Notes: generated by a model not told the origin, from the sequence alone. Numbered from the stretch's first letter, positions 6,522 through 61,312 are shown. The stretch is DNA of 64,000 bases from Botryllus schlosseri (GCA_051294905.1 CM119373.1:1924001-1988000), one strand, 5' to 3'. Made by a program: numbers and translations.

Positions 6522-6647
6522 GTTAGTTTTATGAAATGTTATACATCGATACGTCGGCTGTATGAAATTATCTTTACGAAAATAATTTTCATATTCGACT
6601 CAATATTCTGTTTATTTATTATATTTCTATTCTATTCATGTATTCAG

Positions 6648-18332: not shown

Positions 18333-18500
18333 TTGCAAAAGCTCGGAATCGTCGACAACTCAATGAAAGAAGATGGATATGAAATACTCGTTCACATTCT
18401 GAAGCGGTCAGATTGCAAGGAATTGCAACTCCAAGATTGTTGTCTCACCAAGACTAAGTTGCAAGGAGTATTGAACGGATGTCGGGATCAAAATATCCAG
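18333..18500 (+). CDS. NLR gene, duplicated 168-bp LRR exon copy A
   Basis: atcattttag|TTG...ATCCAG|gtgcgt. Encodes LQKLGIVDNSMKEDGYEILVHILKRSDCKELQLQDCCLTKTKLQGVLNGCRDQNIQ. Confidence 0.88.
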
Positions 18501-19299
18501 GTGCGTCATCATAAACAATCCGTAATATTCAAGAAGACATGTCATCTTACGATTCGAAATTGTTCGTCATCCTACTTCGCCTCAAATCCATGTAATATAC
18601 CATTCACCATTCACCATTTATTCTATCGTTTACCAATACTCGTCGAGTATTGGTAAACTAGTTGACAATATGCAACAGTATTTTAATAATCTGGAATATG
18701 TAGGCTATTGTGCTGCATCCGGAAAATTTCGCGAGCCTTATCTTTCATTACGTGTCGCTATATATCTGGCCGCAAAACCATGTATTCCATGAAGCTCATT
18801 GTAAAATGACAGCATGTAACGAAGTTTATTTAAGCGCTGTTAACGAAACGACCGGCGGACGGTCATATTATCAGTATATATTATAGGATAATAGCCCACG
18901 TTAGAAATCTAACCACCAACGCCGACTGAGTAACGAAAATCAATTTAGTGTTTGATGTTTGACTCAAATGCACTCGGGCTAATTTTCAAATTTTTGACTA
19001 CCCTGCGGAACACGACGTCAATATGAGTATTCAATGTATGTTCAAGTATGTCGTATTTGACGAGGTGAAATTGTACTATTGGCCGGAAATGCAGATTGAG
19101 ATTCCGAAAATATAGTGAACTTATGATTTACTACTTATTTTACCAATTTACGCGTGGCACCAATGAAAAACACATTCACAAATATTTGACTAAAATTGTC
19201 GTTCTACTAAGCAGGGAGTACGCATCATTTGTCGCAATTATGAGAAATAGGCACCATGGCCGAATCTAGGTTTGGGGTCCCATATTGATAAGTGTAGGC

Positions 19300-20853
19300 C
19301 CGGGGTAGGCAAACCCCGGCACGCGTGCCATTTGTGCCACGCGAAATGATTTTTCATGGCATGCCAAATGATTTCACGGAAACGACATATTCATACCATG
19401 TTTTTGCAAAAAGTGAAACAGAAGTTTTCAAATCGTGAAATGCTCGTAGGCGATCCAAAATTATTATTATTATTTCACATTTTACAGTGGTGCTTCTCGC
19501 CTTTTTCAGGCTATGTGCACCACGACACGAATATTTGTAATGTTCATAAGTCTTTGTCTTTGTGTTAATCTTGGGGACGACTTCTTCATTCTTTCGCACA
19601 TCCAGAGGTCAGTCTCTCTCGCACCAATGCGTCCCCGTCGAGGTCTTTGCTGCCGACTTCTAGGACGGCTCACTTTCAATCTGGGCTTTTTAATGCACTG
19701 CAACTGCAGTGAGATCGGCAATGGGTAGCCCAGAGAAACCTCCGACACATAGAGCCTGATGTGTTAATTATGCTGTGGGAACCCCCAATAAATAGATAAA
19801 TATATATGTTGTATTTATAAAATGTTTTAAAAATCTGTGCATAGTGTACAAAAATGAGTCAACCGTGTTAGCAGTTGTGAAAGAACATCAACCGAACATC
19901 GTTTGAAAACGTTTGGATTCTTTAGTCTAGGAGTGTTATTCACTGTGTAGCCTGCGGGAGTGCAACTACTGAACCGGCATTACGACGCTGGGCATCTTCA
20001 CGCTATATAATACATGACCTAGATATAGAGTTTCGGACAATATCCGACCATGCGACTAACAGGCGGTCTATGCGTTGCCAAAGTGATTGGCGGCGATAAA
20101 ACCTTCAAACAAAATAGCCGCTGCATCATGGACAAAACGTTAGACATTGATATGTCCATTGGCAAGGCGCCGAAGTGACCAGCGCCGAATGGCCAGCGCC
20201 CGCACCTGCAGCTTAAGCCGCACGTATCAAATGAGATCTGCCAAGGAAAATAATAAGCCCCGTGTCCAAATGCGAATCGTGTTCGTCTTTCGGGCGTAGA
20301 GTCTGGTGTGCACGCGATTCAATATCTTGAGCAACGCCAATCCTTACCGCTTGACTGCGACCTTTGCCGACAAATATAGTGTCAGACCGACCTTAATGTG
20401 ACGCCAAACCGATTTGAATGAGACTGTGGGGAGGGGGGAAACATTTTTCATCATCATCAGACCATATCATCGTAGCTACACTGATTGGCCCGTCATTTAT
20501 GATTTATTGGATACGGTAACCAACATAGTGGACTTGGAAACGATCCAATCAACCACACAAGATCGATCATTGCCCAATGGCGCGACTGAAAATAAATTAT
20601 GTAAATATCACGTGAGCCTACATATAAGCGATAGGTCGGGTACGGTAGTGTCCAAAATTCAATCCCTTCAAGACCAATCAAGAATTTCTGGCGTGACGAA
20701 TGGCGTTGCCGGTTGCAGAAAAACAGTTTGTGGTATTCCTTGCTGCTTGAAACGTTAAATATTAATAAATTCCATGTTCGGCACGCAAGCTGGTGAAAAA
20801 TTGAAATTTTTTGACATTTTGGCACGCTGCACATAAAAGGTTGCCGGCACTTG
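19300..20853. mobile_element. hAT-type non-autonomous element, copy in unit A
   Basis: Ends CCGGGGTAGGCAAAC / GGTTGCCGGCACTTG; degenerate TSD GTGTAGGC / ATATAGGC; paralogous to 28295-29798. Confidence 0.8.
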
Positions 20854-23800: not shown

Positions 23801-26508
23801 CGTTGTGATTTGATAGATTTTCTCGAATGTTAGTTTGCAATGAGAAGTCAGGAATAATCATATGTACTTACTACACAATATGCTGCGAGACCATTTTCGT
23901 CAGCGCCCCAACCGCCTCCAGAGCCAAGTGCCCCCTATTTTGCCTCCTGAGCGTTTCCATCCCCTAAAAATCCAATTAGCCCCATGGGAGGCGCTGGAGA
24001 CAAGGTTGAGAACCACTGATCTAAATCATCAAGAACTATATTGGTAAAATTACGTCTCCTCCAGCTTCATAAACTGCTCCTCTTCGACAGTACAATGCTC
24101 CCGGACGCATAGAAGAGTAGCGTATGGCCAGTGTTGCTGAATACAAATTCTGTAGGCGGAATTGGGTTCTGAGCTGTCTTAAGAATTCGTCAGAAACAAC
24201 ATATGTAAATGCGCGTGGCCGCGTTCGTGTAGTTTTTGCACTATCACGAAGCAACTAACGATCCAGATTAGACGTTTAAATTCTAACCTTATCCAAGTCT
24301 ATATCATGGTCCCATGCTCAATCTTAGATATTTTTGTACTCAGCGCTCCTTCGGAAATTGTTTCAATCATCACATCCATCTCTGATCTGAACATATAAAT
24401 TGTCATTACCATGTTTTCATCTGCTATCACCCTAATCTAATTTTTGAATTGTTCTTCTGCTCTAATTTTAATCCTAATCTAATTTATAAAATGTTTCTAT
24501 GCTCCAATTTAATTATAATCTAATTTATGAATTGTTTCTATACCCTAATTTTCATTCTAATCCAATTTATTGTTTTCCTGAAAATGCCTATTTGACCGCG
24601 GCGTGTTGCAGCGATTCTCTCTCGCACACGGCAATCCCGAGCGAAGCCGCCATCGTATTACTTACACCAGGGGTCGCCAACTCAAAACGGGTCGTGGGTC
24701 ACTTTTCAAAGTTCGTAGCGGCCGCGGGCCGCATAAATTCAATATCGATATAAAGTAGGCAACCACGTTTTAAAACTCTATGTCAGTACAACGCTGTGCT
24801 ACCTAACATAGGCGATGGGCATAGTGACCACAAAAGTAACATTTTATTAAAGGAATAAAAATAGAACAGAATATCACCGTCATCAATTTCCTTTTATTTT
24901 GAACCCTTAGCTGTGCACGATACCTTGAAACGCTTTTTTGGGCTAGCGAGATACGTTACTAGATGAAAAGCTAAAAAAATTCTAGTTGTCCCAGTCTGCC
25001 GTGTAAGCGGCGTCTTATAAAAGCCTATGAGTGGGCCGTGCTGCAGGTCAGCAGCTACGAAATTTAAATGAAGCACATTGGCCTGGTGTAAATGACCATA
25101 GTAGTCGACAAACACCATGAATACCTCAAATCAAACAAACAAGCGACTAAAAAGGGAGCATAAAAATACGCCAACCTAATCGTCACTGATTCAGCGCTCC
25201 ATAACTGTATTCAACAGGCAAAGCATCGCATTTTTGCCATTTCCATTGTTCGCGAATAAAGTCGTTGCTAGAATATAAACACCATGATCCGTGATATGAT
25301 CTAATGTACTATCATGTGTATATGATCGACACTAAAATATTCAAGTGAAAAATAAAGACACGTGGCGAAATTTTGAACTGAGTTGTCTGATGGTCCGGCC
25401 CGTGACAAATTTGAAGGCTTGAATCCGACCCGCGTCACGATTTGAGTTTGACAACCCTGCTCCAAGCTGAATCGCCATGACGAGATAGCATAATGGTACG
25501 ATCCACGGCTGCAACACCAATTTGTTGCGGGTTCCAGTCTGACCGAGGTCGACTCCAGAATCCCCAGCCAAGTGTTATGGATTTATTCAAGGCTAGGCTC
25601 CTATTCATTCACAAGCTCGGTGGTAGTGGTTTCTTTGAAAAGCCTAGAAGTGGACCGTGCTATGGGTGCTCTCAATATTGCCGGCCCTGAGTATTTTCTG
25701 CACAGCGATCAATGTATATTTTTAAAATTAAATGCGTCTTGGCTTTGCATTCAGGACAGTTTGTTCTACATGCAATAGAAATTTAAATCATTGAAAAATC
25801 AGAGTATATATTGCACGACATTAAAAGCTGGTGATTTTGTCTATTATAACATTTGAGCTTCGATATAGTTGCAGAGTGACGTAAAGACCGAGTGAGTGTC
25901 CCAATTCTATTTCCCAAAAGTGTTTATGAGTACTGGCTGAGTGCCGTACAAACCCTATAATACTGTCGTTATTGAGTGATCACTATCAAATTAGTAATCA
26001 TAAAAACTGCATGTAGGTATGCTTTAAAGCTGCCAAACACTGTAGACCTGCCGTCTCCGTGGATTCAATCGGACAGATTTACATGCCGATATCCTAATGG
26101 CGACAGCATTTTGAAAGAGGCAGAGATTGCCATCATTCCCGTCATCAGAATTCTACGTCGAAATCGGCCCCACACATTTGTTACTCAGAAGACCGAGTTT
26201 CAAATATTGCCAGGGAACTAGCTCGTAGGTAATTTTACAAATTTCTGTTGTGTTCTAGTGTATCCGATCAAATGAAATCTAGAACATTCTATTCGACTCG
26301 AGGATCAATTCTCGATTTGGAATCGCGTCTTCCGAGCCCTCGATGTCGCCCAGCCACCATTGCAATATTATTTTACTTGAAATGATGCCGAAGCAATCGT
26401 AGCAGAGTAATGTGATACTAATAGTATTTTACAGTTTAATGACAGGAATTTCAATTTCATTTTCGAAGGCTAATGAAAGTAATGTTATACGATATTTTAT
26501 CATTTTAG

Positions 26509-26676
26509 TTGCAAAGGCTCAGTATCAACGACAATTCAATGAATGAAGATGGATATGAGATACTCGTTGACATTATGAAGCTGTCAGATTGCAAGCACCT
26601 GGTGCTCCAAAATTGTTGTCTCACCAAGACTAAGTTGCAAGGAGTGTTGAACGTATGTCGGGATCAAAATATCCAG
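26509..26676 (+). CDS. NLR gene, duplicated 168-bp LRR exon copy B
   Basis: Same splice sites as copy A. Encodes LQRLSINDNSMNEDGYEILVDIMKLSDCKHLVLQNCCLTKTKLQGVLNVCRDQNIQ. Confidence 0.88.
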
Positions 26677-33488: not shown

Positions 33489-36400
33489 TACCTAGTTAAA
33501 AATATTTTATGGAAAACAACCCGAGCTATCAGTATAAGTATCAGTTTATTATTATTTTCATAATTTCAAAACACCACGAAACTGTGATAAAATGAGGGGA
33601 TAGGAAGATGTCAAAACGACTTGGAGTAGCTAGCGTGAAAGGAGTGTTATAACGGGGAATTAGCAATCCAAAAGTACGCCAAATTCATTTTACATGATTT
33701 AAAATTAATCACTGCATTCATGAAAACAGGGGTCGGTTGATATTTCGCGATGAGCGCAACGAAAAACGTTGTGAATTAGCAGATTTTGTCGAATGTTAGT
33801 TTGCAATGAGAAGTCAGCAATAATCATATGTCCATACTACACCATATGCTGCGAGACAATTTTCTTCAGCGGCCCAACCGCCACCAGAGCCCAATGCTCC
33901 CTATTTCGTCCCCTGAGCGTTTCCGCCCCTTCAAAATTCAAGCCGCCCCCTGGTAGGCGCTGGAGACAAGGTAAAGAACCACTGATCTAAATAATCACGA
34001 ACTATATTAGTAAAATTACGTCTCCTCCAGCTTCATAAACTGCTCATCTTCGACAGAACAATGCTCCCAGGCGCATAGAAGAGTAGCGTACGGCCAGTGT
34101 TGCTGAATACAAATTCTGTAGGCGGAATTGGACTCTGAGCTGTCGTAGGAATTCGTCAGAAACAACATATACAAATGCGCGTGGTCTTATTCGTGTAGTT
34201 TTTGCGCTATCACGAAGCAACTAACGATCCAGATTAAACATTTAAATTCTAACCTTATCCAAGTCTATATCATGGTCTCATGCTCAGTCTTCTAGAATGA
34301 TAGATACTTTTGTGCTCAGCGCTTCTTTGGAAATTGTATCAATCATCACACCCATCTCTGATCTGAACATATAAAGTGTCATTACCATGTTTTCATCTGA
34401 TATCAAACTAATCTAATTTGTGAATTGTTCTTATGATCTAATTTTACTTCTAATCTAATTTATAAAATGTTTCTATGCTCCAATTTCAATTCCAATCTAA
34501 TTTATGAATTGTACTTATTCTCTAATTCTTATTCTTATCTAATTTGTGAAATGTTCCTATACTTTAATTTTAATTCTAACCTAATTTATTGTTTTTCTGA
34601 AAATGCCTATTAGACCGCGGCATTTTGCAGCGAGTCCCTACGAACAGGGAAATTCAGAGCCAAGCCGCCATCGCATTACTTACACCGTACATAATTAGTA
34701 GTTGTTGTGCGACGAATAATAGCCTACCGGCATGGTAGATTGTTCGTTTGTATTCTGGAACAATTGTGACGCTTATCGTCCAATCATGTTATTTGCGCCA
34801 TGATAATGAATGTTGCAATGTTCATCGATCTTTGCCTTTGGAACTCTTTTCGGACTACTTCCTATCACGCGTCCATTCATCATCGATATCTATCTCGTTT
34901 GCATGCGTCCTCTTCAGTGTCTTTTGCTGACGATTTTAGAAGCTCGACTTCAATAGATCAATTTGGGGTTTTCTTACGGTACTGCATACGCAGTGAGGTC
35001 AAATACAAATGAATCGATATTGGGGCTGGATAGACATGTAGCTAGGTGAAAGACTATCTCATCCTAAAGATTGATTGTGGGGAAGCTCAGGCCCATTTTC
35101 TAAGCGTCTCGGTCTTGGGCTTGGCGGTGTCGGGTCCATTGTACGTCATGGCAATATGCCTATTCATACTAGCTGACTCGCCATCGATGCAATGCTGTTG
35201 CCATCGTTGAAGCCATTTCCGCTATCGCGAGGAATAGTGTTGTTGAGCACAGACGAATAGGTTTATTTAAAATAACAACAATATTAATTTGAAAGTGAAA
35301 TCATTTTCCGCATTTAAAAATGCTTTATTCGCCTTTATTCAAATTCACAGATCAGATTGCCTGCCTCAAAATACAGATTCGCGGGCCGCGTGTTGATGAC
35401 CTCTGATATAGTGCAAAACGAGCAAAGCTTGATATACAGACGTTAACCAGTCTCTTTGTTATGAGACTCCATTGTGATTTGATATGTACTTAAATTTTGC
35501 TGCATTTATTTCTCATTCAGAATTCCATTCAATTTCCAAGTTTTTCCGAATTCAGTAGCCAAAGTCTAATTGTAATTATAATCTAATTTGGAAATAACTG
35601 TGTTAATCTAATTCTAATTCTAATCTAATTTGGAAAAATCGTATAGCTCTAATAATAATTATAATCTAATTCGGAAAAGCTAAAAATTTTCTAGTTGTCC
35701 TAGTCTGTCGCGTAAGTGGCGTCTTATAAAAGCCTATGAGTGGACCGTGCTGCAGGTCAGCAGCTACGAAATTTAGATGAAGCACATTGTCCTGGTGTAA
35801 ATGACCATAGTAGTCGACAAACCCCATGAATACCTCAAACCAAACAAACAAGCGACTAAAAAGGGAGCATAAAAATACGCCAACTTATATCGCCGTTAGT
35901 GCCACTGATTTAGCGCTCCATAACTCTACTCAACAGACAAATCATCGCATTTTTGCCAATTCCATTGTTCGGGAATAAAGTCGTTGCTAGAATATAAACA
36001 CCATGATCCGTGATATGATTTAATGCACTATTAAGTATATATGATCGATACTAGAATATTCACGTGAAAAATAAGGACATGTGGAAAAATTTTGAACCGA
36101 GTTGACTGATGGTCCGGCTCGTGACAGATTTGAAGGTTTAAATCCGACCCGCGTCGCCATTTGAGTTTGACAACCCTGCTCCAAGCTGAATCGCCATAAC
36201 AAGATAGCATAATGGTATGATCCACGGCTGCAACACCAATTGGTTGCGGGTTCGAGTCTGACCCAGGTCCACTCCAGAATTTCCAGCCAAGCGTTACAGA
36301 TTTATCCACGGCTAGGCTCCTCTTCATTCACCAGATCAGCGGTAGCGGTTTCTTAAAAAAGCCTAAAAGTGGACCGTGCTATGAGTGCTCTCAATATTGC

Positions 36401-37227
36401 AGGCCCTGAGAATTTTCTGCACAGCGATCAATGTATATTTTTAAAATTAAATGCCTCTTGGCTTTGCATTCAGGGCAGTTTGTTTTACATGCAATCGAAA
36501 TTTAAATCATTGGTAAAACAGAGTATATATTGCACGACAATAAAAGCTGGTGATTGTGTCTATCATAACATTTGAGATTCTATATAGTTGCTGAGTGACG
36601 TAAAGACCGAGTGTCTCATTTCGATCTCCCAAAAGTGTTTATGAATATTGGCTGAGTGCCGTACAAACCCTAATACTGTCGTTATTGACTGATCACTAGT
36701 AAATTAGTGATCATAAAAACTACATAAAGGTATGCTTTAAAGCTGCCAAACACAGTAGACCTGACGTCTCCGTGGTTTCAATCGGACAGATTTACTTGCC
36801 GATATCCCAATGGCGACAACATTTTGTAAGAGGCAGATATTGCTATCATTCCAGTCAACAGAATTCTACGTCGAAATCGGCCCCACACATTTGTTACGAC
36901 CGACGACCGAGTTTCCAAATAATGTGAGGTAACTAGCTCGTAGGTAATTTTACAAATTTCTATTGTATTTGAGTGTATACGATCAAATGAAATCTAGAAC
37001 ATTCGATCTAATCGATGCGAGGATCAATTCCCGATTCGGAATCGTATCTTCCGAGCCCTCGATGCCGCCCACCCGCAATTGCAATATTATTTTACTTGAA
37101 ATGATGGCGAAGTAATCGTAGCACAGTAATGTGATACTGATAGTCTTTTACAGTTTACTGACATAAAATTCGATTTCATTTTCGAAGCCTAATAAAAGTA
37201 ATGTTATACCATATTTTATCATTTTAG

Positions 37228-37395
37228 TTGCAAAAGCTCGTTATCGTCGACAATTCAATGAATGAAGATGGATATGAAATACTCGTTCACATTATGAAGC
37301 TGTCAGATTGCAAGGAATTGCAACTCCAAGATTGTTGTCTCACCAAGACTAAGTTGCAAGGAGTATTGAACGGATGTCGGGATCAAAATATCCAG
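37228..37395 (+). CDS. NLR gene, duplicated 168-bp LRR exon copy C
   Basis: Same splice sites. Encodes LQKLVIVDNSMNEDGYEILVHIMKLSDCKELQLQDCCLTKTKLQGVLNGCRDQNIQ. Confidence 0.88.
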
Positions 37396-43766: not shown

Positions 43767-46536
43767 ATCTAAGGTTTTAGTGGTCCGAAACCTAGTGAAT
43801 CATGAAAATAAGTCTGGTGCCCCCCTATTTTAAGGGTGTAGTAAAAACCCAATGTGTAAGTGGTCGAAGTCCGCCTTCCGGTTAGGAATTCACTATAAGA
43901 CCACTCGACTGATCAAGGGTATAATTTTTTTTGCTGTTTTCGGGATCAAATCCAGGTTGTTATAACAACCATCGGGTAAAAACTACGGGCTCATAGCATT
44001 TGGTTCGAGATCGATGGACACATCTCGAATTCTCCTCTACGATTGCCAATACGGTGAATAAAGTTGTATTCGTTTCGTTTTATTGCTTTGTGTGACCACT
44101 TAATCAACTGAGAATGTTGTAGAGACTTGCTCACGTTACATTTAGCGCTGCTATTAAATTCAACATGAATGCGGGTAACAACACTCAGCAGTATCATCCT
44201 TTATGATACGATTACGAAATATTCTGACGACATAATTTTGTAGCTCTCAAATACAAGTATATTTAGTTACTCGTTTTTGCCAGAAAGCTGCAAAACACCT
44301 TTAATGTACAAATGACATCACTCTCGAAAGTTGATCAGTAGCCTTTAGCGCCTTTGCGATTTAGGCACGCAGTGCGCATCAGGATAAAATACCTAGTCAA
44401 AAATATTTTATGTAAAACAACCCGAGCTATCAGTATAAGTATCAATTTATTAATATTTTCATCATTTCAAAACACCACAAAACTTCGATACCATGAAAGG
44501 ATAGGAAGATGTCAAAACTACTTGGAGTATAGCTAGCGTGACGGGGTTGTTATGAAGGGGAATATAGCAATCCAAAAGTACCCCAAATTCATTTTACATG
44601 ATTTAAAATAAACCACTGCATTCATGGAATCATGAGTCGGTGGATATTTCGCGATGAGCGCGACTAAAAACGTTGTGATTTAACAGATTTTGTCGAATGT
44701 TAGTTTGCAATGAGAAACCAGGAATAATCATATGTCCTTACTACACCATCTGCTGCGAGACCATTTTCTTCAGCGCCTCAACCGCGTCCAGAGCCAAGTG
44801 CCCTCTATTTCGCCCCCTGAGCGTTTCCGCCCCTTCAAAATCCAAGTAGCTCCCTGGGAGGCGCTGGAGACAAGGTTAAGAACCACTGATCTAAATCATC
44901 ACGAACTATATTGGTAAAATTACGTCTCCTCCAGCTTCATAAACTGCTCATCTTCGACAGTACAATGCTCCCGGACGCATAGAAGAGTAGCGTACGACCA
45001 GTGTTGCTGATTATAAATTCTGTAGACGGAATTGGGCTCTGAGCTGTCGTAAGAAGTCGTCAGAAACAACATATACAAATGCGCGTGGTCGTGTTCGTGT
45101 AGTTTTTGCGCTATCACGAAGCAACTAACGATCCAGATTAAACGTTTAAATTCTAATCTTTTCCAAGTCTATATCATGGTATCATGCTCAATCTTCTAGA
45201 ATGATAGATACTTTTGTACTCAGCGCTTCTTTGGAAATTGTGTCAATCATCACACCCATCTCTGATCTGAACATATAAAGTGTCATCACCATGTTTTCAT
45301 CTGCTATCACACTAATCGAATTTTTGAATTGTTTTTATGCTCTAATTTTAATTCCAATCTAATTCATGAATTGTTCTTATGCTCTAATTCTAATCTAATT
45401 TATTGTTTTCCTGAAAATGCCTATTTGACCGCGGCATGTTGCAGCGAGTCCATCTCGCAAAGGGATATCCAGAGTCAAGCCGCAATTGCATTACTTACAC
45501 CGTACAGAAATAGTAGTTGTTGTGCGACGAATAATAGCCATACTGGAACAATTGTGACGCTTATCGCCGAATCATGTTATTTGTGCCATGAAAATGAATG
45601 TTGCAATGTTCATTGATCTTTGCCTTTGGAACTCTTTTTGGACTACTTCCAGTCACGTATCTATTCATCATATATCTATCTCGTTTGCATACGACCTCTT
45701 CAGTGTCTTTTGCTGACGATTTTCGAAGCTCGAGTTCAATTATTTAAACTGGGCTTTTCGTACGGCACTGCATACGCAGTGAGTTCAGCTACTAACGATT
45801 CGATATTAGGGCTATCCAGACATGTTGCTAGGTGAAAGACTATCTCATCCTAAAGATTGGCTTTGGGGACGCCCTATAGCCCTAGTTTTCCAAGCGCCTC
45901 GGTGTCGAGTGCACTGTACGTCATGGCAATATCCCTATTCATGCCAGCTGACTCTCCATCGATGGAATGCTGTTGCCTTCGTTGAAGCTATTTCCGCTAT
46001 AGCGAGGAATAGTGTTGTTGAGGACAGACGAATAGGTTTATTTAATACAACAACAATAATTATTTGAAACTGAAATCAATTTTCGCATTTCAAAATGCTT
46101 TATTCGCGTTCTTCCAAATTCATAGATCAGATCGCCAGCCGCAAAATACGACTTCGCGGGCCGCCTATTGATGACCCGGGTATAGTGCAAAACGAGCGAA
46201 GCTTGATATACAGACGTTAACCAATCTCTTTGTTATGAGACTCCACTGTGGTTTGATATGAACTGAACTTTTTGCTGTATTTATTTCTCATTCAGAATTT
46301 CATTCGATTTCCAAGTAGTTTTTCCGAATTCAGTAGCCAAATTCTAATTGTAAGTATAATCTAATTTGAAAATGACTGTGTTAATCTAATTCTAATTGTG
46401 ATCTAATTTGAAAAAAATTGTATAGCTCAAATTATAATTCTAATCTAATTCGGAAATGCTAAAAATTTTCTAGTTGTCCTAGTCTGCCGCGTAAGTGGCG
46501 TCTTATAAAAGCTTATGAGTGGGCCGTGCTGCAGGT

Positions 46537-46734
46537 ATTGTTTGTTTGTTTTGGGGTATTCATGGTGTTTGTCGACTACGATGGTCATTTACACCAGGCC
46601 GACATTCTTTTTATTTTCCGTAACTGCCGACTTATAGCACGGCTCACCTCTAGGCTTTTGTAAGACACCGCTGACGCGGATGAGGTGGCGAGGAGGAGCC
46701 TAGGTAAACCTCCAACACTTGGGTATCGAGATTC
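46537..46734 (-). mobile_element. 5'-truncated SINE inserted antisense into another copy of the same SINE family
   Basis: 13-bp TSD CCGTGCTGCAGGT (46524-46536, 46735-46747); (TTTG)n tail at the left end; reverse-complement match to the SINE body. Confidence 0.8.
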
Positions 46735-47744
46735 CCGTGCTGCAGGTCAGCAGCTACGAAATTTAAATGAAGCACATTGGCCTGGTGTAAATGACCATAG
46801 TAGTCGACAAACCCCATGAATACCTCAAATCAAACAAACAAGCGACTAGAAAGGGAGCATAGAAATACGTCAACTGATATCGTCGTTAGTGCCACTGATT
46901 TAGCGCTCCATAACTGTACTCAACAGGCAAATCATCACAATTTTGCCAATTCCATTGTTCGCGAATAAATTCGTTGCTAGAATATAAACCCTATGATCCG
47001 TGATATGATTTAATGTACTATTATGTATATATGATTGATAATAAAGTATTCAAGTGAAAATACGGACATGTGGCAAAACTTTGAAACGAGTTGACAGATG
47101 GTCGGGCCCGTGAGAAATTTGAAGATTTTAATCCTACCCGAGTAGCCATTTGAGTTTGACAACCGTTCTCTAAGCTTAATTGCGATGACGAGATAGCATA
47201 ATGGTATGATCCACGGCTGCAACACCAATTGGTTGCGGGTTCGAGTCTGACCGAGGTCGCCTCCAGAATTCCCAGCCAAGTGTTAGAGGTTTATATAGGG
47301 CTAGGCTCCACTTCATTCACCAGATCGGCGCTAGCGATTTCTTAAAAAAGGCTAGAAGTGGATTTTGCTATGAGTGCTCTCAATATTGCAGGCCCTGAGT
47401 ATTTTTCTGCACAGCGATCAATGTATATTTTTAAAGTTAGATGCCTCTTGGCTCTGCATTCAGAACAAGTCGTTTTACATGCAATCTAAATTCAAATCAT
47501 TGGTAAAACGGAGTATATATTGCACGACATTAAAAGCTGGCGATTTCGTCTATTATAACATTTGAGATCGACCGAGACCGAGTGTCTCATTTCGATTTCC
47601 CAGAAGTGTTTATGAATGCGGGTTGGGCACCGTTTAAACCCTAATACTGCCGTTATCGAGTGATCACATATTAAAATGGCTATCCGGACCACATATTAAA
47701 ATGCTCCATCTCTAGGGTATTGAAAAAATCGGATACAGGTCCAA

Positions 47745-47975
47745 AATATGGCCCTACCTTGGCTAGGTAACGTGTCTAGCCGTTTTGAAAAGCTTATTAA
47801 ATCGGCTGTTCACCGTTGCTATTACAGCGTTAACACGCATGTAGTGTACACGACGAAACCCTTGTTACCCAACTCTCGAAAAGATGTACTTCCTGCCTTT
47901 GATGCAAGTAATGTTGTTTACCAATACAAGTACCACTGTGATAGTAGGTATGTAGGATGTACGACCACTCGCAAT
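47745..47975 (+). mobile_element. Penelope-like retroelement remnant (linker plus start of GIY-YIG endonuclease)
   Basis: Translation LPWLG...KDVLP...SNVVYQYKYHCDSRYVGCTT resembles the PLE LPYxG...KD...VVYxxxCxC..YVGxT signature. Recognised by eye, no search run. Confidence 0.65.
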
Positions 47976-49228
47976 TTGGGTGCGTGTAGTAAGCGGATAA
48001 GAAATAATATAGATAAGTCCGGAGCTCATCGGAAATGGACATGGATCTCTCAATATTGGTAGTTGGCGTCCAGCTAGTTCATCGCGACTAAGCTCTGGGA
48101 TGCTGCCGTAGGCTACATGATTAATCGATATGCAGCCGTGAATAGTAAAAAGGTTGGCGACCCCTTGGAAATGAATTCCAGCTAAGCTTTTCATTTAAGA
48201 GAGCTCGTTTCTCATGCACTTGAAATTAACATCATTCAAACTTTTTTTTATAATGGTGTCGAAGCATATACACTTATACAATCTTCCAGCGATTTCAATA
48301 CCAATTGACAATATATACCAGTATTTTAATAATCTGTAATATGTATTGTGCTGCATCCGGAATATTTCGCGATCGGTATTTTTCGTTACATGTCGCTACA
48401 TCTCTAATCGCAAAACCATGTATTCCAAGGCGCCCATTGTAAAATGCCAACATGTAACAAGGTTTTAGTTATCGCTGGTAACGAAACGACCGGCGAACGG
48501 TCATATTATCAATATCTATTATAGGATAATAACTCATGGTATAAATCTAGCCGACTGAGTGAAGAAAATCGATTTAGTGTTTGATGCTTGACTCATATGT
48601 ACTCGGGATCCAATTTCCTAGTTTTTGATCACCCCGCTGGCCACAGCGTCAATATGGGTATGCAATGTATTTTTAAGTATGTCGTATTTGACGAGGTGAA
48701 ATTGTTCGATTGAAGGTTAACCGAAATAGCAGACTGAGATTCCACAAATATCGTGACATTGTGATTTACTATTTTTTAGCAATTTATGCGTTGCACGAAT
48801 AAAAACCACATTCATAAATATTTGACTAGAACTGTCATTGTACTTGACAGGGAGTACGCATCATTTGTCAAAATTATGAGAAATAGGCAACATAGCCGAA
48901 TCTAGTTTTAAGATATCATATTGATAAGTATAGGCTATTGATTATGTCATTGCCCAAGTCAAAATAAAACAGCGTTGGATTTAACTTCACTGGTGTTACA
49001 GCGGTGGAGCGTAGCACTACGGTATTCACCCTCTTAAATCGGCGATAAAGATATGGATAAAGGGGTCAAAGATGAAACTGACTACACATTCAGGGTGCAA
49101 TAGAATGCTCACTGTTGTTATAACAACTTGCGTCGATAGCGAAACACCGTGTCACGAGCTCAATTCCAATCAGTCGAAGCGGAGTTATTGCCGTCGCAAA
49201 ATTTTGGATTTGAATAAAATAGTATTTA

Positions 49229-52111: not shown

Positions 52112-52356
52112 ACTTGACTTGACTAGTGACTTGACTAGTGACTTGACTCGTGACTTGACTCGTGACTTGACTTGACTTGACTTGACTTGACTTGACTTGA
52201 CTTGACTTGACTTGACTTGACTTGACTTGACTTGACTTGACTTGACTTGACTTGACTTGACTTGACTTGACTTGACTTGACTTGACTTGACTTGACTTGA
52301 CTTGACTTGACTTGACTTGACTTGACTTGACTTGACTTGACTTGACTTGACTTGAC
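52112..52356. repeat. (ACTTG)n microsatellite
   Basis: About 48 pentamer units; a shorter paralogue lies at 63089-63147. Confidence 0.97.
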
Positions 52357-54564
52357 CCGAGTCACCTTTGAAAATCAAGTGACTTGACTTGACTCGAGTC
52401 AAAATGAATTGGCAACAAAACGTTTCCATGAATCTCGACGAAGTCACAAAATCAATGTAAATACAGGCCAATGGCACACAAAGGCAGACAAACGTTTACA
52501 GGGGATCCAAATATAAATAAGCAGTGGGACAGTATTGAATGCTTACACATCGGAATTGTATACTATATTGTTCCACATAATTCCATCGTTAATAATTCAA
52601 CGGTATGAAGTGTATGCTCGAGCAGTATAGCTAACCCGTCGCTTCCACAATTGCATGTCTTAAATTGATATTTATCGAAACTTCAAGTCAAAAATATGGA
52701 TGTGCGAACCTGAATCTAGTAGCTATGAAATTCTAAATCCGATATTGATCGAATGAACCCTGCAAGATTGATATCTGAAATCGGTTCATCAAACAAACGG
52801 TATGTGCGAATTCACAATCGTAATATCGAGAATCAACATCTGTGACTTTTCAGTGTCTTCTGATGGGAGTGCAATTCTTCAAAAAATATCACAAACCATA
52901 ACGTATTCTTTATTGCAGTCTTACCATAGCGGTACCCTATATAAAAAGATTGATGTGGCAATTATACAATTCATTTTTTATGTCGAAACAATAATACACC
53001 GTGTCGACCGGCACTGATATCTTAATGTCTAATATAATGAAAATCGAAACCACTAAGAATAATATTGTTAAAATTTCGTCTCCACCAGCTTCAGAAACTG
53101 CCCATCTTCGACAGTACACTACTCCCGGGTTCTTATTATGACGTGGCGGAAATTGCAAAAGCCACCAAATGCGCCGAAGTGTGTGTACCGAACCCAATTC
53201 CAACGTCCACGTTTACGGTTTAATCTCTTGTATTCTTACCAACGCACACTCGGGGTCAACATCCAGTTACGACTAAAAAGAGTGGTGGGATAGCGTAGTG
53301 GTGTAATCCACTGCTGCAACACCTATGGGTTACTGGTGCGAGTGCGACCAATTTCGACTCTAGAATTCCTAATTAAGTGTTGGAGGTTTAGCTAGGCTCC
53401 TCCTCGCCATCTCATACGCGTAACAGACTTGGACAACTAGATAATTCTAGTTGTCTAATTTCACTAAATTAGAGCGAAATAGCAGTAATCGAATTCTAAG
53501 CTAATTTATAAAATTTTCTATGCTCCAATTCTAATTCTAATTCTGATTCTAATCTAAATTGAGAAAAGTTCTTATACTCTAATTTTAATTCTAATCTAAT
53601 TCATTGTTTTCCTGAAAATGCCTATTTGACTGCGGCATGTTGCCGCGAGTCCCTCTCGTACAGGGAAGTCCAGAGCCAAGACGCCATCGCATTACTTGCA
53701 CCGTACAGAAATAGTAGTTATTGTGCGACGAATAAGAGCCATACTGGCATAGTAGCTTGTTTGTTGGTTTTCTTGAACAATTGCGAGGCTTATTGAATAA
53801 GCATGTTATATGCGCCATGATAAGAAATGTTGCAATGTTCATTGATCTTTGCCTTATGAACTCTTTTCGGACTACTTCCAGTCACACACCCATTCATCAT
53901 TGATATCCATCTCGTTTGCATACGACCTCGTCAGTGTCTTTTACCGACGATTTTCGAAACTCGACTTTAATTGATCAATCTGGGCTTTTCTTACGGCACT
54001 GCATACGCAGTGACGTCAGCTACTAACGATTCGATATTCGGGCAAGCCAGACATGTTGCTAGATGAAAGACTATCTCATCCTAAAGATTGGCTGTGGGGA
54101 CACCCTAGCCCGTTTTCCAAGCGTTTCGGCGTCGCGTGCATTCTACGTCATGGCAATATGCCTATTCATACCAGCTGACTCTCCGTCGATGGAATGCTGA
54201 TGCCTCCGTTGAAGCTATTTTCGCTATAGCGAGGAATAGTGTTGTTCAGGACAGACGAATAAGTTTATTTAAAACTACAACAATAATAATTTGAAACTGA
54301 AATCATTTTCGCATTTCAAAATGCTTTATTCGCGTTCTTCCAAATTAACAGATCAGATCGCCGGCCGCAAAATACAACCTCGCGGGCCGCCTGTTGATGG
54401 CCCCTGGTATTGTGCAAAACGAGCAAAGCTTGATATACGGACGTTAACCAATCTCTTTGTTATGAGACTCCATTGTGATTTGATATGAACTGAACTTTTT
54501 ACTGCATTTATTTCTCATTCAAATTTTCATTCGATTTCCAAGTTTTTCCGAATTCAAATTCTGA

Positions 54565-55300
54565 TGCTAATTATAATCTAATTTCGAAAAATTGTATAGC
54601 TCTAATTCTAATTCTAATCTAATTTGGAAAAAGCTGTGTAGATGTAATTCTAATTCTATTATAATCTGGAAAAAAAGCTGTGTAGATTTAATTCTAATTT
54701 TAATATAATTTGGAAAATATGCATAGCTCTAATTATAATTCTAATATAATTTGGAAAAAGCTGTGTAGATCTAATTCTAATTCTAATCTAATTTGGAAAA
54801 AGCTGTGTAGATTTAATTCTAATTTCAATCTAATTTGGAAAAATTGTATAGCTCTAATTATAATTATAATCTAATTTGGAAAAAGCTGTGTATATCTAAT
54901 TCTAATTCTAATCTAATTTGGAAATAACTGTGTTGATCTAATTCTAATTCTATTCTAATCTGAAAAAAAGCTGTGTAGCTTTATTTCTAATTTGAATCTA
55001 ATTTGAAAAAATTGTATAGCTCAAATTATAATTATAATCTAATTTGGAAAAAGCTGTGTAGATCTAATTCTAATTCTAATCTAATTTGAAAATAACTGTG
55101 TTGATCTAATTCTAATTCTATTCTAATCTGAAAAAAAGCTGTTTAGCATTATTTCTAATTTGAATCTAATTTGGAAAAATTGTATAGATCTAATTCTAAT
55201 TCTAATCTAATTTGGAAAAAGCTGTGTAGATCTAATTCTAATTCTAATCTAATTTGGAAATAACTGTATAGCTCTAATTCTAATTCTAATATAATTTGTA
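54565..55300. repeat. ~42-bp AT-rich minisatellite
   Basis: Unit tctaattctaattctaatctaatttggaaaaagctgtgtaga, roughly 17 copies; only ~3 copies at the paralogous sites ~35570-35680 and ~46345-46460. Confidence 0.9.
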
Positions 55301-56793
55301 AAAGCTTAAAAATTCTTAGTTGTCCAAGTAAGCGGTGTCATATAAAAGCATGAGTGGGCCTTGCAGCAAGTCAGCAGCTACGGATTTTAAATGAAGCACA
55401 TTGGCCCGGTGTAAATGACCATAGTATTCGACAAATCCCAAGATTACCTCAAAACAAACAAACAAGCGACTAAAAAGGGAGCATAAAAATACGCCAACTT
55501 CTATCGTCGTTACTGCCACTGATTTAGCGATCCATAACTGTACTCAACAGGCAAATCATCGCATTTTTGCCAATTTCATTGTTCGCGAATAAAGTCGTTG
55601 CTAGAATATAAACCCTATGATCCGTGATATGTTCTAATGTACTATTATGTATGTATATAATGATAGATAATAAAGTATTCAAGTGAAAATACGGACATGT
55701 GACAAAATCTTGAAATGAGTTGACTGATGGTCCGGCCTGTGAGAGATTTGAAGGTTTGAATCCGACTCGCGTCGCCTTTTCAGATGCACAATCCTGCTCT
55801 AAGCTGAATCGCCATGACGAGATAGCATAATGGTATGATCCACGGCTGTAACACCAATTGGTTGCGGGTTCGATGCTGACCGAGGTCGACTCCCGAATTC
55901 CCAGCCAAGTGTTACAGATTTATCTAGGGCTATGCTCCTATTTATTCACCAGATCAGCGGTAGTGGTTTCTTAAAAAAGCCTAGAAGTGGATCGTGCTAT
56001 GAGTGCTCTCAATTTCGCAGGCCCTGAGTATCTTCTGCACAGCGATCAGTGTATATTTTTATAATTGAATGCCTCTTGGCTTTGCATTCAGGACAGTTTG
56101 TTTTACATGCAATCGAAATTTGAATCATTGGTAAAACAGAGTATATATTGCACGACATTAATATTGCACACATTGTCTATTATAATATTTGAGATTCTAT
56201 ATAGTTGCTGAGTGACGTAAAGACCGAGTGAGTGTCTCACTTCGATTTCCCAAAAGTGTTTATGAATACTGGCTGAGTGCCGTAGAAACCCTATAGTACT
56301 GTCTTTATTGAGTGATCATTAGTAAATTAGTAATCATAAAAACTGCATAACGGTATGCTTTAAAGTTGCCAAACACAGTAGACCAGCCGTCTCCGTGGAT
56401 TCAATCGGACAGATTTACTTGCCGACATCCTGATGGCGACCACTTTTTGAAGGAGGAATAGATTGCTATTATTCCAGTTAACAGAATTCAACGTCGAAAT
56501 CAGCCAACACATATTTTACTCAGAGGACCGAGTTTCCAAATAATGTCAGCCAAATAGCTCATAGGTAATTTTACAAATTTCTGTTGTGTTTGAGTGTATG
56601 CGATCAAATGAAATCTAGACTATTCTACTCGACTCGAAGATCAATTCTCGTTTCGAAATCGTATCTTCCGAGCCCTCGATTTCGCCCAGTCACAGTTGCA
56701 AGATTATGGTATTTTAAAGTCTACTGACAGTAATTTCGATTTCATTTTCGAAGCATAATAAAAGTCATTTTATCCGATATTTGATCATTTTAG

Positions 56794-56961
56794 TTGCAAC
56801 AGCTCGGAATCGTCGACAACTCAATGAAAGAAGATGGATATGAAATACTCGTTCACATTCTGAAGCTGTCAGATTGCAAGGAATTGGTGCTCGAAAATTG
56901 TTGTCTCACCAAGACTAAGTTGCAAGGAGTGTTGAACGGATGTCGGGATCAAAATATCCAG
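56794..56961 (+). CDS. NLR gene, duplicated 168-bp LRR exon copy D
   Basis: Same splice sites. Encodes LQQLGIVDNSMKEDGYEILVHILKLSDCKELVLENCCLTKTKLQGVLNGCRDQNIQ. Confidence 0.88.
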
Positions 56962-58561
56962 GTGCGTCACCATGAACAATCCGTAATATCCAAGAAGACA
57001 TGTCATCTTACGATTCGAAATTGTTCGTCATCCTACTTCGCCTCAAATCCAGACATGGGGTAATCGCGATTAGTAATCGTAATCGATTACGACGATTACA
57101 GCATTTTGAAGTAATCGTAATCGCAATCGATTACATTCGGAAAAAATCCGAAGTAATCGTAATCGTAATCGACTACTTCCCATATCTAATCGATTTGTTT
57201 GTGAAAGAACGATTACTTTTTGTTTATACAAGGACTATGACATAAACTGAATATTCGTGAACAGGAATGAGATAATATACCACGTTAGCGTTAGCACAAA
57301 CGTCTGTTTTCAAACGCCACTGACTCATTATTACGTCAGAAGTATTAGCTCCGCTCGTCATTGCGTAACAAGTATCCACACATAGTAAACAGACATGCGA
57401 TGGACATTGTAGTGTGATTGTATGAACAGTGAACACCTCCCGTGGTGTATATCAGGTTATCAATACACTACAGAAGCCGCTACCTCGCAGCAGGATATTG
57501 ATCACCACTCTGCCTGTAGTTTCAAATAGTAACTTATGTATTAATGTTTGGTTGTGCTTAGTTAAACGCAGTTTACCATTGCTGCTTGGCGAGCAGGAGG
57601 CCTACGTACGCACGTGCACCTGACGAAGATTCGGAATTTTGTACTCGTCGAATAAGACATTGCAGTTTCCACAACGAAGCATTACAAACAAACAGCTGCT
57701 GATATATCTCATAACCGAGCCAAGCTTAGCCGTTTCTCGTAACAGCAGCTCGCTGTATATGTATTAAGTTGAAGGCAGAATTTTTATGTTAACCATATCT
57801 TATTCTCATATAACTACTTGAAACGGGCGTCAATCGTTATTTCACAGTTCGTTACTTAGCATTTGGACCTGCCGCCATAACCATCCGCTTATATAGCCTG
57901 ACATGTTAGCGTGGGTTGTAGCTAGAATCAGCAATTCAGCCAAAACAGCAATTCCCCTGTCCAACCGTTGGTCAATTTTCAAAAGTGAATATTTCGTCAA
58001 TAATATTGGTAATTGCGTTATATTACTATTCATTTATAACCTCTCTGAGCCCCGAGTGTCAGATTTACCTGTAAAGCTGGGGCACGTAATTCATATTCAT
58101 AGCATCTGGTATGTTGTTGTAATTACTGTATGTTGTTAATTCGCGACCTCCAGTCCGTTGTATAATCACAAGATATTGTACTCGCCAAAACGTAGCAGAC
58201 TAAAAGAATATCTTTTGTGAGACGCACACACAAATTGTCATGGCTTTATTCTTTTGTGGATGCGCCGGGTGACATTTGCATTGCGGGCCCAGATTGGAAA
58301 GACAGGAGTTATTAGTCCCGCCCACTCAGCGCGGCTATTGACAATGGACGAATACCCTAAGTTTCGGCCAAGGTATTTCTTTGGTATCACATCCCGTGGA
58401 GTTGCGTGTTGGCCGAAACTGCATATGTGTTTTGGTGTGTTGTAGGATCGTGGCGCGGTAATGACCGGCTACGAAATGCCTGTTCCCTTAAAATATAGCC
58501 TATGTATGTTTTTTCTTGAGGGGAAGGAGGTATGCATTTCAAACCCAGCTATCTACTGGAG

Positions 58562-59504
58562 CAGGGGTCATCAACTGTTTTGAAACAAAAAACTACTTCT
58601 TGTGTAGTGTGTACTGATTATTGCGACGACCGACGGGTTACCTCGTACTCCCATCGTTTATCCATGTTCAGTTGGATTTCTTCACTTAGAGTAAGACAAT
58701 CAGAGCACTGGGCCGGGTTTCCGCCCCTTATCAAGAAAAAAAAAACGCTCACTCGCAGGGACTCACACCAGCTCCTCCAAGCTCAGTTGCGTTGCTGCAG
58801 TGCGCGCAGAAGCGCCGATCTCCGCGTCTAGACTCGGGAAAATTAACTATATAGATTCCCGTTGAGCCGCCGCGTGGGCGAACACAAGCAATGCCCCGAG
58901 CGACTGCGTTCGTATGTTCCTTGGCGTCGGCCGACCCATGTTCAACTGCTGCTCATATGAAACGAGCTTCAACTATCAAATCTCTCATTTGGATATTTGC
59001 TACAGCGCAGGGGTGGCCATACGAACGGGGTGGGGGGGGGGGGGGCTTGGCGAGACTTACCGGGGGCCCCCTATAAGAATCTCTCCGTAACTTATGGGGG
59101 GCTTCGCCCCCCAGACCCCTCTTTCGCATCTGTTATTATTATCTATCTATCAAGGTTTGGCCAGGTGCTGGATTCGGCCATGTCTATTTTTTCATGTGTG
59201 CAAAGATACACGACATTAAAACTAAGTAATTCTACCGTATGCAGAGACGTGATGATTATCGGGATATGGTACTTTTCTAACAAATGCAAGATTTGATGAT
59301 GATTGACACATCTATACGGAATCCTATTCTTGCCTTACACGGATTTCCATGTTTATTCGTTATTATCCTTGAAAAAAGCGCATAACTCAAATAGGGGAGC
59401 CCTTCGGCCAGCCCCCCTGGCGACCGCCCACCTTGCCCACCCCAAAAGCCACCACTACTACAGCGACGGCGGGCGACTCATTTGGTCCGCGTTGGTGACC
59501 CCTG
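58562..59504. mobile_element. Nested hAT-type MITE
   Basis: Ends CAGGGGTCATCAAC / GTTGGTGACCCCTG; TSD TACTGGAG / TACTAGAG. Confidence 0.82.
59008..59457. mobile_element. Doubly nested hAT-type MITE
   Basis: Ends CAGGGGTGGC / GCCACCACTA; perfect TSD CTACAGCG (59000-59007, 59458-59465). Confidence 0.78.
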
Positions 59505-61144
59505 TACTAGAGATATTTGAATCGCAAAGCTCGAAAAACATTTACAAGAATTAATTAAATTCTCGAAAATGCTCTATAATATATGTTGGTTTACGAAATA
59601 CTTTTGAGTCCCCTTCGAGCACGCACCCACTCTATTAAGGAATTTTGGGCGCGGCATGTAAAGACCTGGCAATAAGGCAAATCGTTGGATGCGATAAATC
59701 ATCCACTATAAAGTTGGGCAATTGATATATTATGACGTAATAAGCAAATGACGCATGATGAAGAAAGTTGATATCTCATTAAGCCTTTTCATCGCAGTCC
59801 TTGTATTGTCTTCCCATATATCATTTAAGATTATAGTCCTAAGCTAAACAAATGTAATCGTGAGTAATCGTGATTACTTTTTCAATGTAATCGTAATCGT
59901 AATCGACTACTTCCTGATTTTGCTGTAATCGTAATCGTAATCGTAATCGCGTGCTTCCGAAGTAATCGTAATCGCAATCGATTACATTCATAAAGTAATC
60001 ACCCCATGTCTGCTCAAATCCATGCAGCACAAAATCGTTCATCATTTATTCTATCGTTTACCAATACTCGGCGGAGGTAATTCGAATACCGCAGGGGTTT
60101 AGTATTTTGCAACACAGATTACTTTGGACATTTTTAAAATTGTTGACGACGCGACAGCGTAGATATCATCAATATAGGAATATTCATGACATAAATCTAG
60201 CCGAAAAGGCCGAAAGAGTGATTTATCTAGGGCTAGGCTCCTCTTCATGCACCAGATCGGTGGGAGCGGTTTCTTAGAAAAAGCCTAGAAGTGGACCGTG
60301 CTATGAGTGCTCTCAATATTGCAGGCCCTGAGCATTTTCTGCACATCGATCAATATATATTTTTAAAATTAAATGGCTCTTGGCTTTGCATTCAGGACAT
60401 TTGTTTTACATGAAATCGAAGTTTGAATCATTGGTAACTCAGAGTATATATTGCACGACATTAAAAGCTGGTGATTTTGTCTATTATAACATTTGAGATT
60501 CTATATAGTTTCTGAGTGACGTAAAAACCGAGTGAGTGTTTGACTTCGATTTCCCAAAAGTGTTTATGAATACTGGCTGAGTGCCGTACAAACCCTAATA
60601 CTGTCGTTATTGAGTGATCACTAGTAAATTAGTAATCCTAAAACCACATATAGATATGCTTTAAAGCTGCCAAACACAGCAGACCTGCCGTCTCCTTGGA
60701 TTCAATCGGACAGATTACATGCCGATATCCTAATGGCGACAACATTTTGTAAGAGGCAAAGATTGCTATCATTCCAGTCAACAGAATTCTACGTCGAAAT
60801 CGGCCCCACACATTTGTTACTCAGAAGACCGAGTTTTTAAATTTTGCCAGGCAACTAGCTCATAGGTCATTTTACAAACTTCTCTTGTGTTAGAGTGTAT
60901 TCGATCTAATGAAATCTGGAACATTCTACTCGACTCGAGGATCAATTCTCGATTCGGAATCGTATCTTCGGAGCCTCGATGTCGCCAACCCACCATTGAA
61001 ATATTATTTTACTTGAAATGATGGCGGAGCTATCGTAGCAGAGTAATGTGATATTAATAGTATTTTACAGTTTAATGACAGCAATTTCAATTTCATTTTC
61101 GAAGTCTAATGAAAGTAATGTTATACGATATTTTATCATTTTAG

Positions 61145-61312
61145 TTGCAAAAGCTCGTTATCACCGACAATTCAATGAATGAAGATGGATATGAAATACT
61201 CGTTCACATTCTGAAGCTGACAAATTGCAAGAGATTGGTGCTCCGAAATTGTTGTCTCACCACGACTAAATTGCAAGGAGTATTGGACGGATGTCGGGAT
61301 CAAAATATCCAG
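61145..61312 (+). CDS. NLR gene, duplicated 168-bp LRR exon copy E
   Basis: Same splice sites. Encodes LQKLVITDNSMNEDGYEILVHILKLTNCKRLVLRNCCLTTTKLQGVLDGCRDQNIQ. Confidence 0.88.

Follow-up and report, generated by a model that had tools for sequence, protein, structure and literature searches.

The 64,000-nucleotide stretch of Botryllus schlosseri DNA analysed here (GCA_051294905.1, CM119373.1:1924001-1988000), referred to below as the window and numbered from its first letter, is C3:1924001-1988000 of a 495-Mb assembly and consists of eukaryotic DNA with a GC content of about 40%. It carries the beginning of a very long gene or array, with a NACHT NTPase exon, a family-specific helical exon and two diverged leucine-rich repeat (LRR) exons at its 5' end, followed by an array of tandem units in which five close copies of a 168-nt LRR exon (A to E) and two terminal coding exons (T1 and T2) are found (Table 1). 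Of particular interest is the way in which copies A to E differ from one another. On our reading, which we consider probable, they are tandem-multiplied LRR exons of an animal-type NACHT-LRR (NLR) gene, held under diversifying selection at seven codons of the two beta-strands that each of them encodes.

A repeat search of the window brings out the copies as a five-member family starting at 18245, 26421, 37140, 56706 and 61057, and its alignment shows a sharply conserved 168-nt core between ...TTTTAG and GTGCGT..., which in every copy makes 56 codons and is of phase 0. The initial annotation of this DNA, made from the sequence alone, had covered 18333..61312, from the first base of A to the last base of E, and the pattern that it described there is confirmed. 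On recount, 16 codons vary in amino acid among A to E (3, 5, 7, 12, 21, 23, 25, 26, 27, 30, 32, 34, 35, 40, 48 and 49) and five vary only synonymously (9, 17, 31, 42 and 46). The codons with three states are exactly 3, 5, 7, 30 and 34, all of them inside the two xxLxLxx motifs, and the first 16 include codons 32 and 35, which had also been named as variable. The multi-nucleotide differences reported between triplets (GGA/AGT/GTT, GAA/CAC/AGA and CAA/GTG) are present in the alignment, and the L, I and C residues of the strands and the splice dinucleotides are unchanged across the five copies. A motif class of ten x positions (codons 2, 3, 5, 7, 8, 29, 30, 32, 34 and 35), set a priori from the motifs L1-x-x-L-x-I-x-D-N and C28-x-x-L-x-L-x-x-C, takes in all five of the three-state codons (hypergeometric P = 6.6e-5), as well as seven of the ten codons at which at least four residues occur among the 30 copies of the exon in the genome (P = 5.2e-5).

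The exon, whose peptide is LQKLGIVDNSM.EDGYEILVHILK.SDCKELQLQDCCLTKTKLQGVLNGCRDQNIQ, is two ribonuclease-inhibitor (RI)-type LRRs. A Pfam scan of the single 56-aa exon finds no match; a profile built from the copies finds designed RI-like LRRs (4.5e-7), NLRP14 (5e-4) and the ribonuclease inhibitor RNH1 (4e-3), all in register, so that the copies fall on the LxLxxN / LxLxxC strands of the latter two. AlphaFold2 on exon A, aligned with the two diverged LRR exons of the gene and 27 further copies of the family, followed by DSSP, predicts a strand at 3-7, a helix at 13-26, a strand at 30-34 and a helix at 40-48, with a mean predicted local distance difference test score (pLDDT) of 72. On this predicted structure the codons named in the initial annotation are placed in the two beta-strands (E3-7 and E30-34), with codon 35 directly after the second strand, and the variable residues that the tests below single out alternate with core residues.

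Protein and DNA searches of the whole assembly give the 30 exon copies just mentioned, 27 of them at C3 1.487-2.152 Mb and three at C3 33.0-33.3 Mb, the next relatives being at most 64% identical. Every one of the 30 keeps its open frame, its AG and its GT, with an in-frame 6-nt deletion in one, and F replaces the strand L in a single copy at codon 4 and in a single copy at codon 33.

Selection was assessed on these 30 copies by codon likelihood with our own code (GY94, F3x4, the IQ-TREE M0 tree with one free scale), which reproduces the IQ-TREE M0 log-likelihood (lnL) of -1217.985 exactly. Model M2a (-1163.87) improves on M1a (-1184.85) with twice the lnL difference (2dlnL) at 41.97 (p = 8e-10), an omega2 (dN/dS of the selected class) of 4.81 and a p2 of 0.118; the comparison of M7 with M8, which had been put forward as the check on the initial annotation, gives 47.19, and that of M8a with M8 gives 42.08. 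The site models place omega at about 4.7 (4.6-4.8) for some 12% of codons, and the posterior exceeds 0.5 at exactly codons 3, 5, 7, 30, 32, 34 and 35, being above 0.95 at all of these except codon 30, where it is 0.77-0.82. When the codons are divided by the a-priori motif class, omega is 2.98 for the ten and 0.53 for the other 46, and a value of 1 for the class is rejected by likelihood-ratio test (LRT 29.27, p = 6e-8). If the class is given a synonymous rate of its own, the scale of that rate is only 1.17 and omega is still 2.61 (p = 0.0046), so that the excess is one of nonsynonymous change and not mutational. The signal is found again with the exon halves on separate trees (LRT 16.45, sites 3, 5 and 7; LRT 9.51, sites 34 and 35), in A to E alone (LRT 13.73, p = 0.001), in the 15 copies behind the window's NACHT exon (LRT 15.49) and on terminal branches, where omega at the motif codons is 2.56 (p = 0.011). 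In the site models, the a-priori partition and A to E alone, dN/dS is thus above 1 at the codons that had been named.

Simple counting agrees as to the size of the effect. By the Nei-Gojobori method, dN among A to E is 0.366 at the ten motif codons and 0.038 at the other 46, with an exon-wide dS of 0.113; for the 25 close copies the corresponding values are 0.313, 0.029 and 0.103. The Jukes-Cantor divergence of the flanking introns, taken from BLAST high-scoring segment pairs, is 0.09-0.10 and in line with the exon dS, so that in the comparison with flanking intron that the initial annotation had proposed, motif-codon dN (0.31-0.37) exceeds both the intron divergence and the exon-wide dS (0.10-0.11) roughly threefold. 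Distances from MAFFT forced on flanks of 130 and 500 nt were inflated and inconsistent, and the BLAST distances were used instead. That diversifying selection drives amino-acid change at codons 3, 5, 7, 30, 32, 34 and 35 is supported by these tests, which carry the conclusion drawn from A to E to 25 further copies.

Table 1. Features of the window and copies of its terminal exon on C3 (window coordinates unless marked C3; ORF, open reading frame)
Feature	Position	Strand	Remarks
NACHT NTPase exon, open frame	5367-6818	+	ORF, Pfam NACHT; Walker A GEAGAGKST
Family-specific (helical) exon, open frame	11813-12193	+	ORF; between NACHT exon and LRRs; once per gene
LRR exon 1	12869-13036	+	168 nt, AG..GT, phase 0; diverged, 25% identical to A
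LRR exon 2	14009-14176	+	168 nt, AG..GT, phase 0; 34% identical to A
Array of six tandem units	17045-64000	+	units of 4.3-11 kb, 87-96% alike
Exon copy A (two RI-type LRRs)	18333-18500	+	AG..GT, 168 nt, open in frame 0
Exon copy B	26509-26676	+	AG..GT, 168 nt, open in frame 0
Exon copy C	37228-37395	+	AG..GT, 168 nt, open in frame 0
Junction in unit 4, exon missing	47675-47979	+	self-alignment offsets; no exon match here
Terminal coding exon T1	53089-53223	+	acceptor AG, 44 codons from LQKLPIFD, then stop
Exon copy D	56794-56961	+	AG..GT, 168 nt, open in frame 0; 3.6 kb downstream of T1
Exon copy E	61145-61312	+	AG..GT, 168 nt, open in frame 0
Terminal exon T2	63880-64000	+	self-alignment; extends 14 nt beyond window end
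Terminal exon frame copies	C3 1793875, 1835530, 1977041, 1987832, 2022162, 2038992, 2100722, 2122355		window frame 53041-53223

The gene in which these exons lie is recognised by its NACHT frame, which matches Pfam NACHT at E = 3e-13 (50.4 bits, cut-off 26.7) and NOD2_WH at E = 3.8e-4 (20.9 bits, under the curated cut-off of 23.1), and for which the closest Atlas clusters are NACHT/NOD2-WH proteins. A protein search with the same frame returns a Styela clava protein at 21% identity and two unnamed proteins at 49% and 41%. Within the frame, an odd hydrophobic low-complexity stretch at 6500-6700, between '...SHQTMQ' and 'EFCCAMH...', resembles a short in-frame intron read through, and nine 177-nt tandem units, 96% alike, occupy 7549-9147 between this frame and that of the next exon. 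The helical exon frame has no match in a Pfam scan; it has 28 genomic matches, which regionally are found only at C3 1435821, 1715630 and 1935813, each adjoining a NACHT exon, and LRR exon 1 has five, one per gene. Phase 0 is common to LRR1, LRR2, the A-type exons and the terminal exon, so that they can be joined in any order with the frame intact. The simplest transcript would run NACHT...LRR1-LRR2-A-B-C-T1, the copies, which follow the NACHT exon on the same strand, in order and with phase-0 borders, presumably being joined to it in mRNA, and D-E-T2 would be the first of several further 3' sets. T2 is 99% identical to T1, flanks included, and the first 60 nt past the window end, which hold the last 14 nt of T2 with its stop, are identical to T1. 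Neither AATAAA nor ATTAAA occurs within 1.5 kb after the T stop. An (ACTTG)n microsatellite lies upstream of the terminal exon, with 47 copies before T1 (52112-52356) and 11 before T2 (63089-63147), a length difference that sits inside an otherwise 98-99% identical duplicate.

The tandem units that carry the copies start near 17045, 24965, 35674, 46735, 55328 and 60220 and are non-coding apart from the exon: in the 45 of 62 ORFs of at least 90 aa that were scanned there is no Pfam family above cut-off and no transposon, the remaining 17 lying over frames on that list or over exons scanned before. The exon has been lost from unit 4, where about 300 nt replace the 1540 nt (36703-38243) that hold it in unit 3. 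AT-rich minisatellites with periods of 41-54 nt, mostly 42 nt, are found near the unit borders (24432-24570, 34408-34589, 35565-35678, 45314-45394, 46346-46450, 53486-53602 and 54560-55303), the largest of them, with 17.7 copies, directly before the unit of D; unequal crossing-over, which would have multiplied the units, may have used them as substrates.

Beyond the window, C3 1.42-2.17 Mb contains a NACHT exon, a helical exon and LRR1 three times each, near 1.42, 1.70 and 1.93 Mb, with 5, 7 and 15 A-type exons, in that order, behind the three heads. The single NACHT exon of C3 1.70-2.17 Mb is that of the window, and the roughly 15 copies and the terminal exons behind it extend over about 220 kb. 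These 15 copies have a mean identity of 86% (range 77-98%), made up of 94% over 49 codons and 34% over the seven under selection. Stop-bearing terminal exons number eight, of which the second array has two and the third six; they are at least 97% identical (97-100% in protein) and much more uniform than the neighbouring A-type exons. The differing repeat numbers of the three arrays and the lost exon of unit 4 are indirect signs only that repeat number may vary between individuals. Two longer exon-like frames, at C3 2017890-2018084 and 2118043-2118237, show a resemblance of 55% to the terminal exon and of 33% to the A-type exon. Each precedes a terminal exon by about 4.2 kb; the window has none of this kind. 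In the array of the neighbouring gene two A-type exons (L012 and L019, C3:1797675 and 1798569) are 894 nt apart, and C3 7.18 Mb carries a compact paralogue whose exons, of the same 168-nt type, are spaced at 616-770 nt and are 53% identical on average; compact spacing of this kind may be the ancestral arrangement.

Taken together, we would picture each 168-nt exon as a strand-helix-strand-helix module of an animal-type NLR gene, which, along with 8-11 kb of surrounding non-coding DNA, would have been multiplied by tandem duplication. The modules would still be exchanged between units and between neighbouring genes through unequal crossing-over or gene conversion, keeping the scaffold about 94% identical, and selection would favour amino-acid change at codons 3, 5 and 7 of the first strand and 30, 32, 34 and 35 of the second. 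Since these seven alternate with buried L and I residues, they should face the concave side of the LRR horseshoe, and the receptor surface would be diversified module by module. By analogy with RI/LRR complexes, and from LRR geometry, this face would contact a ligand and may have a role in ligand specificity.

Several results weigh against this reading, and these, including the RNA and recombination data, are set out here and in the next paragraphs. In a per-site test with site-specific synonymous rates only codons 3, 34 and 35 of the seven reach p < 0.1, codons 5, 7, 30 and 32 having p = 0.68, 0.18, 0.38 and 0.51, and the helix codons 20 and 23 also have p < 0.05. Within the ten motif codons alone the Nei-Gojobori dN/dS is 1.31 for A to E, 1.75 for the 25 close copies and 0.82 for all 30, on about five synonymous sites. 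In the likelihood models branch lengths are fixed in proportion to those of M0, and the posteriors are naive empirical Bayes. Foldseek with the 56-residue model gives nothing at E <= 0.001, the best match being ribonuclease inhibitor at E = 0.14. No protein joining such exons is present in the collection searched, where exon A as a query found nothing.

The expression data bear on a different explanation, according to which some copies, above all D and E behind T1, are unexpressed 3' fragments from segmental duplication whose differences were inherited from expressed copies or refreshed from them by conversion. In four bulk RNA runs (1.1-1.9 billion letters read each), mapped on window 55345-64000, depth on E is 0 in three and 0.13 in the fourth, depth over T2 and its surroundings (63437-64000) is 0 in all four, and no run has a splice joint D-E or E-T; the low depth in the bin of D is due to a repeat beginning at 57050. 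Reads of all four runs do map partly at 57050-57650, 59680-60260, 62281-62569 and 62859-63147, and 88-95% of these continue into unlike sequence, many with variant letters; they come from dispersed repeats transcribed elsewhere and not from this locus. A search of sequencing runs with the NACHT exon listed no RNA run. The layout of the region speaks the same way, with one NACHT exon to about 15 A-type and six terminal exons in C3 1.93-2.16 Mb, with no 5' exon seen in the 3.6 kb between T1 and D, and with a block from T to the next exon that is young (nucleotide diversity, pi, of 1.15% upstream). Against it, T1 is so close to T2 that the blank covers the terminal exon of the whole subfamily, and the runs are powerless to separate D and E from A to C. 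The sequences themselves also count against it: stops occur in none of the 30 copies, whereas about 12 would be expected to carry one in a simulation that scatters equally many changes at random, indels in the exon are limited to one, in frame, compared with 19-38 gap blocks in every 168 nt of the flanks, and the omega of the 46 scaffold codons is 0.61 even on terminal branches (p = 0.034 against 1). From these intact frames and this constraint the copies appear to be functional, as the initial annotation had supposed, and we think it rather unlikely that some of them, above all D and E, are silent fragments.

Recombination among the copies raises a second explanation. On screening, with which the initial annotation had coupled its site-model check, recombination is real: a PHI-type permutation test gives p = 0.0485, with 30% of informative site pairs incompatible. 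At six loci, including D, pi is 1.15% in the 1.5 kb upstream, 5.4% in the exon and 17-22% downstream, a contrast which puts a block boundary at the exon. Identical exons are common to the arrays of two genes (L008 and L009, L017 and L018), and divergence at the seven codons is almost uncoupled from that of the flanks, being 19.5% where the flanks are on average 1.3% apart and 35-37% where they are 12-14% apart (278 of 351 pairs). An argument for rapid change drawn from the closest pairs was dropped, as their contrast between flanks and codons is due to the mosaic breakpoint at the exon. The array evolves, then, by unequal crossing-over or conversion, with the exons as junction points; a single tree is only an approximation, and the LRTs can be inflated. 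The seven codons could in that case lie in old islands of specificity, two ancient patches of 15-18 nt left standing while gene conversion homogenises the rest and selection removes the conversions that would overwrite them, so that dN > dS would reflect coalescence depth under diversity-maintaining selection and not a raised rate of substitution. The uncoupling from the flanks, the breakpoint, the exons shared by two genes and the many multi-nucleotide differences would all fit such islands. Against such islands, the synonymous rates at the interleaved buried codons 4, 6, 31 and 33 (2.85, 0.83, 0.61 and 0, mean about 1.1) are close to the exon average, so that the patches are not simply older; the class scale of 1.17, the omega of 2.6 that remains with it and the excess on terminal branches point the same way. 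Given the low power of about five synonymous sites, the explanation by old islands is weakened by these results and, in our judgement, unlikely. Selection favouring diversity at the seven codons is needed under either reading, be it by recurrent change or by the keeping of old islands.

Relaxed constraint, under which exposed strand residues merely drift at an omega of about 1 on a conserved scaffold, would be in keeping with the variation that the compact paralogue also has at x positions and with the general tendency of successive LRR repeats to vary mostly there, but it is very improbable in view of the rejection of omega = 1 for the motif class, with or without a synonymous rate of its own, the gain of M8 over M8a and the threefold excess of motif-codon dN over intron and synonymous divergence. 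That clustered multi-nucleotide mutation or a local hot spot mimics positive selection is hardly credible, for although several codon differences need two or three base changes and double- and triple-hit rates improve M1a from -1184.85 to -1176.31, M2a with the same rates is still better by a 2dlnL of 37.95 at the same seven sites, and the synonymous rate of the class is not raised.

Selection at the seven strand codons, as we prefer to read the data, has a close counterpart in plants, where the LRRs of NLR (R-gene) proteins are under diversifying selection on solvent-exposed xxLxLxx residues and their clustered paralogues undergo unequal crossing-over or gene conversion, and where the LRR domain is mostly encoded in one or a few large exons. 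The Botryllus exons share with them an omega above 1 that is confined to the x residues of the strands, a conserved scaffold and recombining paralogues; they differ in belonging to a NACHT and not an NB-ARC protein, and in their RI-type repeats of about 28 residues, which stand two to a phase-0 exon between introns of 8-11 kb. In lampreys, variable lymphocyte receptor (VLR) loci place beside a single gene a large stock of LRR modules that vary at concave residues; donor cassettes there are not exons that can be spliced, and are copied into a germline gene that is incomplete. Unlike those, the modules here are ordinary exons, with AG/GT borders and phase 0 in all 30, and the receptor is an intracellular-type NACHT protein; somatic cassette assembly of the VLR type does not fit copies that are spliceable and a gene that has its own LRR and terminal exons in line.

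Among other systems, the WD, ANK and TPR repeats of fungal NLRs (the HNWD family of Podospora) are described, in PMC4986451, as more than 85% alike and in concerted evolution within and between genes, with a few positively selected positions that map to the binding face; the same paper found no LRRs in NLRs of fungi and gives high internal conservation for only 0.8% of metazoan ANK, TPR and WD repeats. The near-identity of the Botryllus copies (the 86% of the 15) and their few hypervariable positions are much alike, whereas the fungal repeats are contiguous coding DNA and ours are separate exons in 8-11 kb units. For the LRR-ROCO genes of Ectocarpus, PMC3341825 describes repeats that are modular by exon and shuffled between loci, with an LRR domain under diversifying selection, and it raises the idea of somatic recombination; that system belongs to another kingdom, has ROC-COR or NB-ARC in place of NACHT, and has one LRR per exon where there are two here. 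The zebrafish NLR-B30.2 (NLR-C) family, the best-studied of the large animal NLR families, likewise combines NACHT with exon-modular LRRs. According to PMC4852459, its last LRR is fixed and 'barely differs between genes', and a second type is present in varying numbers; the paper calls the LRRs 'not particularly variable', places positive selection in the B30.2 domain and also draws a comparison with lamprey VLRs. The near-identical T exon of Botryllus parallels the fixed last LRR, and the A-type exons vary in number; no B30.2 is seen in the ORFs scanned here, in contrast, and it is the LRR strands that carry the selection signal.

The arrangement of the third array leaves room for a bolder suggestion, left open by the phase 0 of all exons, the single 5' half per array and the intactness of all copies. 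One NACHT head might stand before a germline library of some 220 kb, with about 15 interchangeable LRR exons, hypervariable at their concave residues, and near-identical stop-bearing terminal exons in between, from which alternative splicing, or a 3'-end or cell-specific choice, would draw chains such as A-B-C-T1 or D-E-T2. We regard this as decidedly speculative and improbable; if true, it would amount to a combinatorial NLR repertoire comparable in logic to the clustered protocadherins or Dscam.

Our literature searches found no report of such a signature for LRR exons in an animal NLR of invertebrate type, which is not proof of its absence. Diversifying selection on the LRR binding face is a hallmark of plant NLRs, and to our knowledge the recognising part of the large animal NLR families is mostly unknown. 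The locus described here would be an animal-type NACHT-LRR gene with a plant- and fungus-like signature in a very clean form, its scaffold 94% identical, its seven codons 34% identical and their omega about 4.7. It names seven residues per module for mutation or swap in binding tests, and it is well suited to the study of repeat shuffling, of exon modularity and, possibly, of alternative 3' cassettes.

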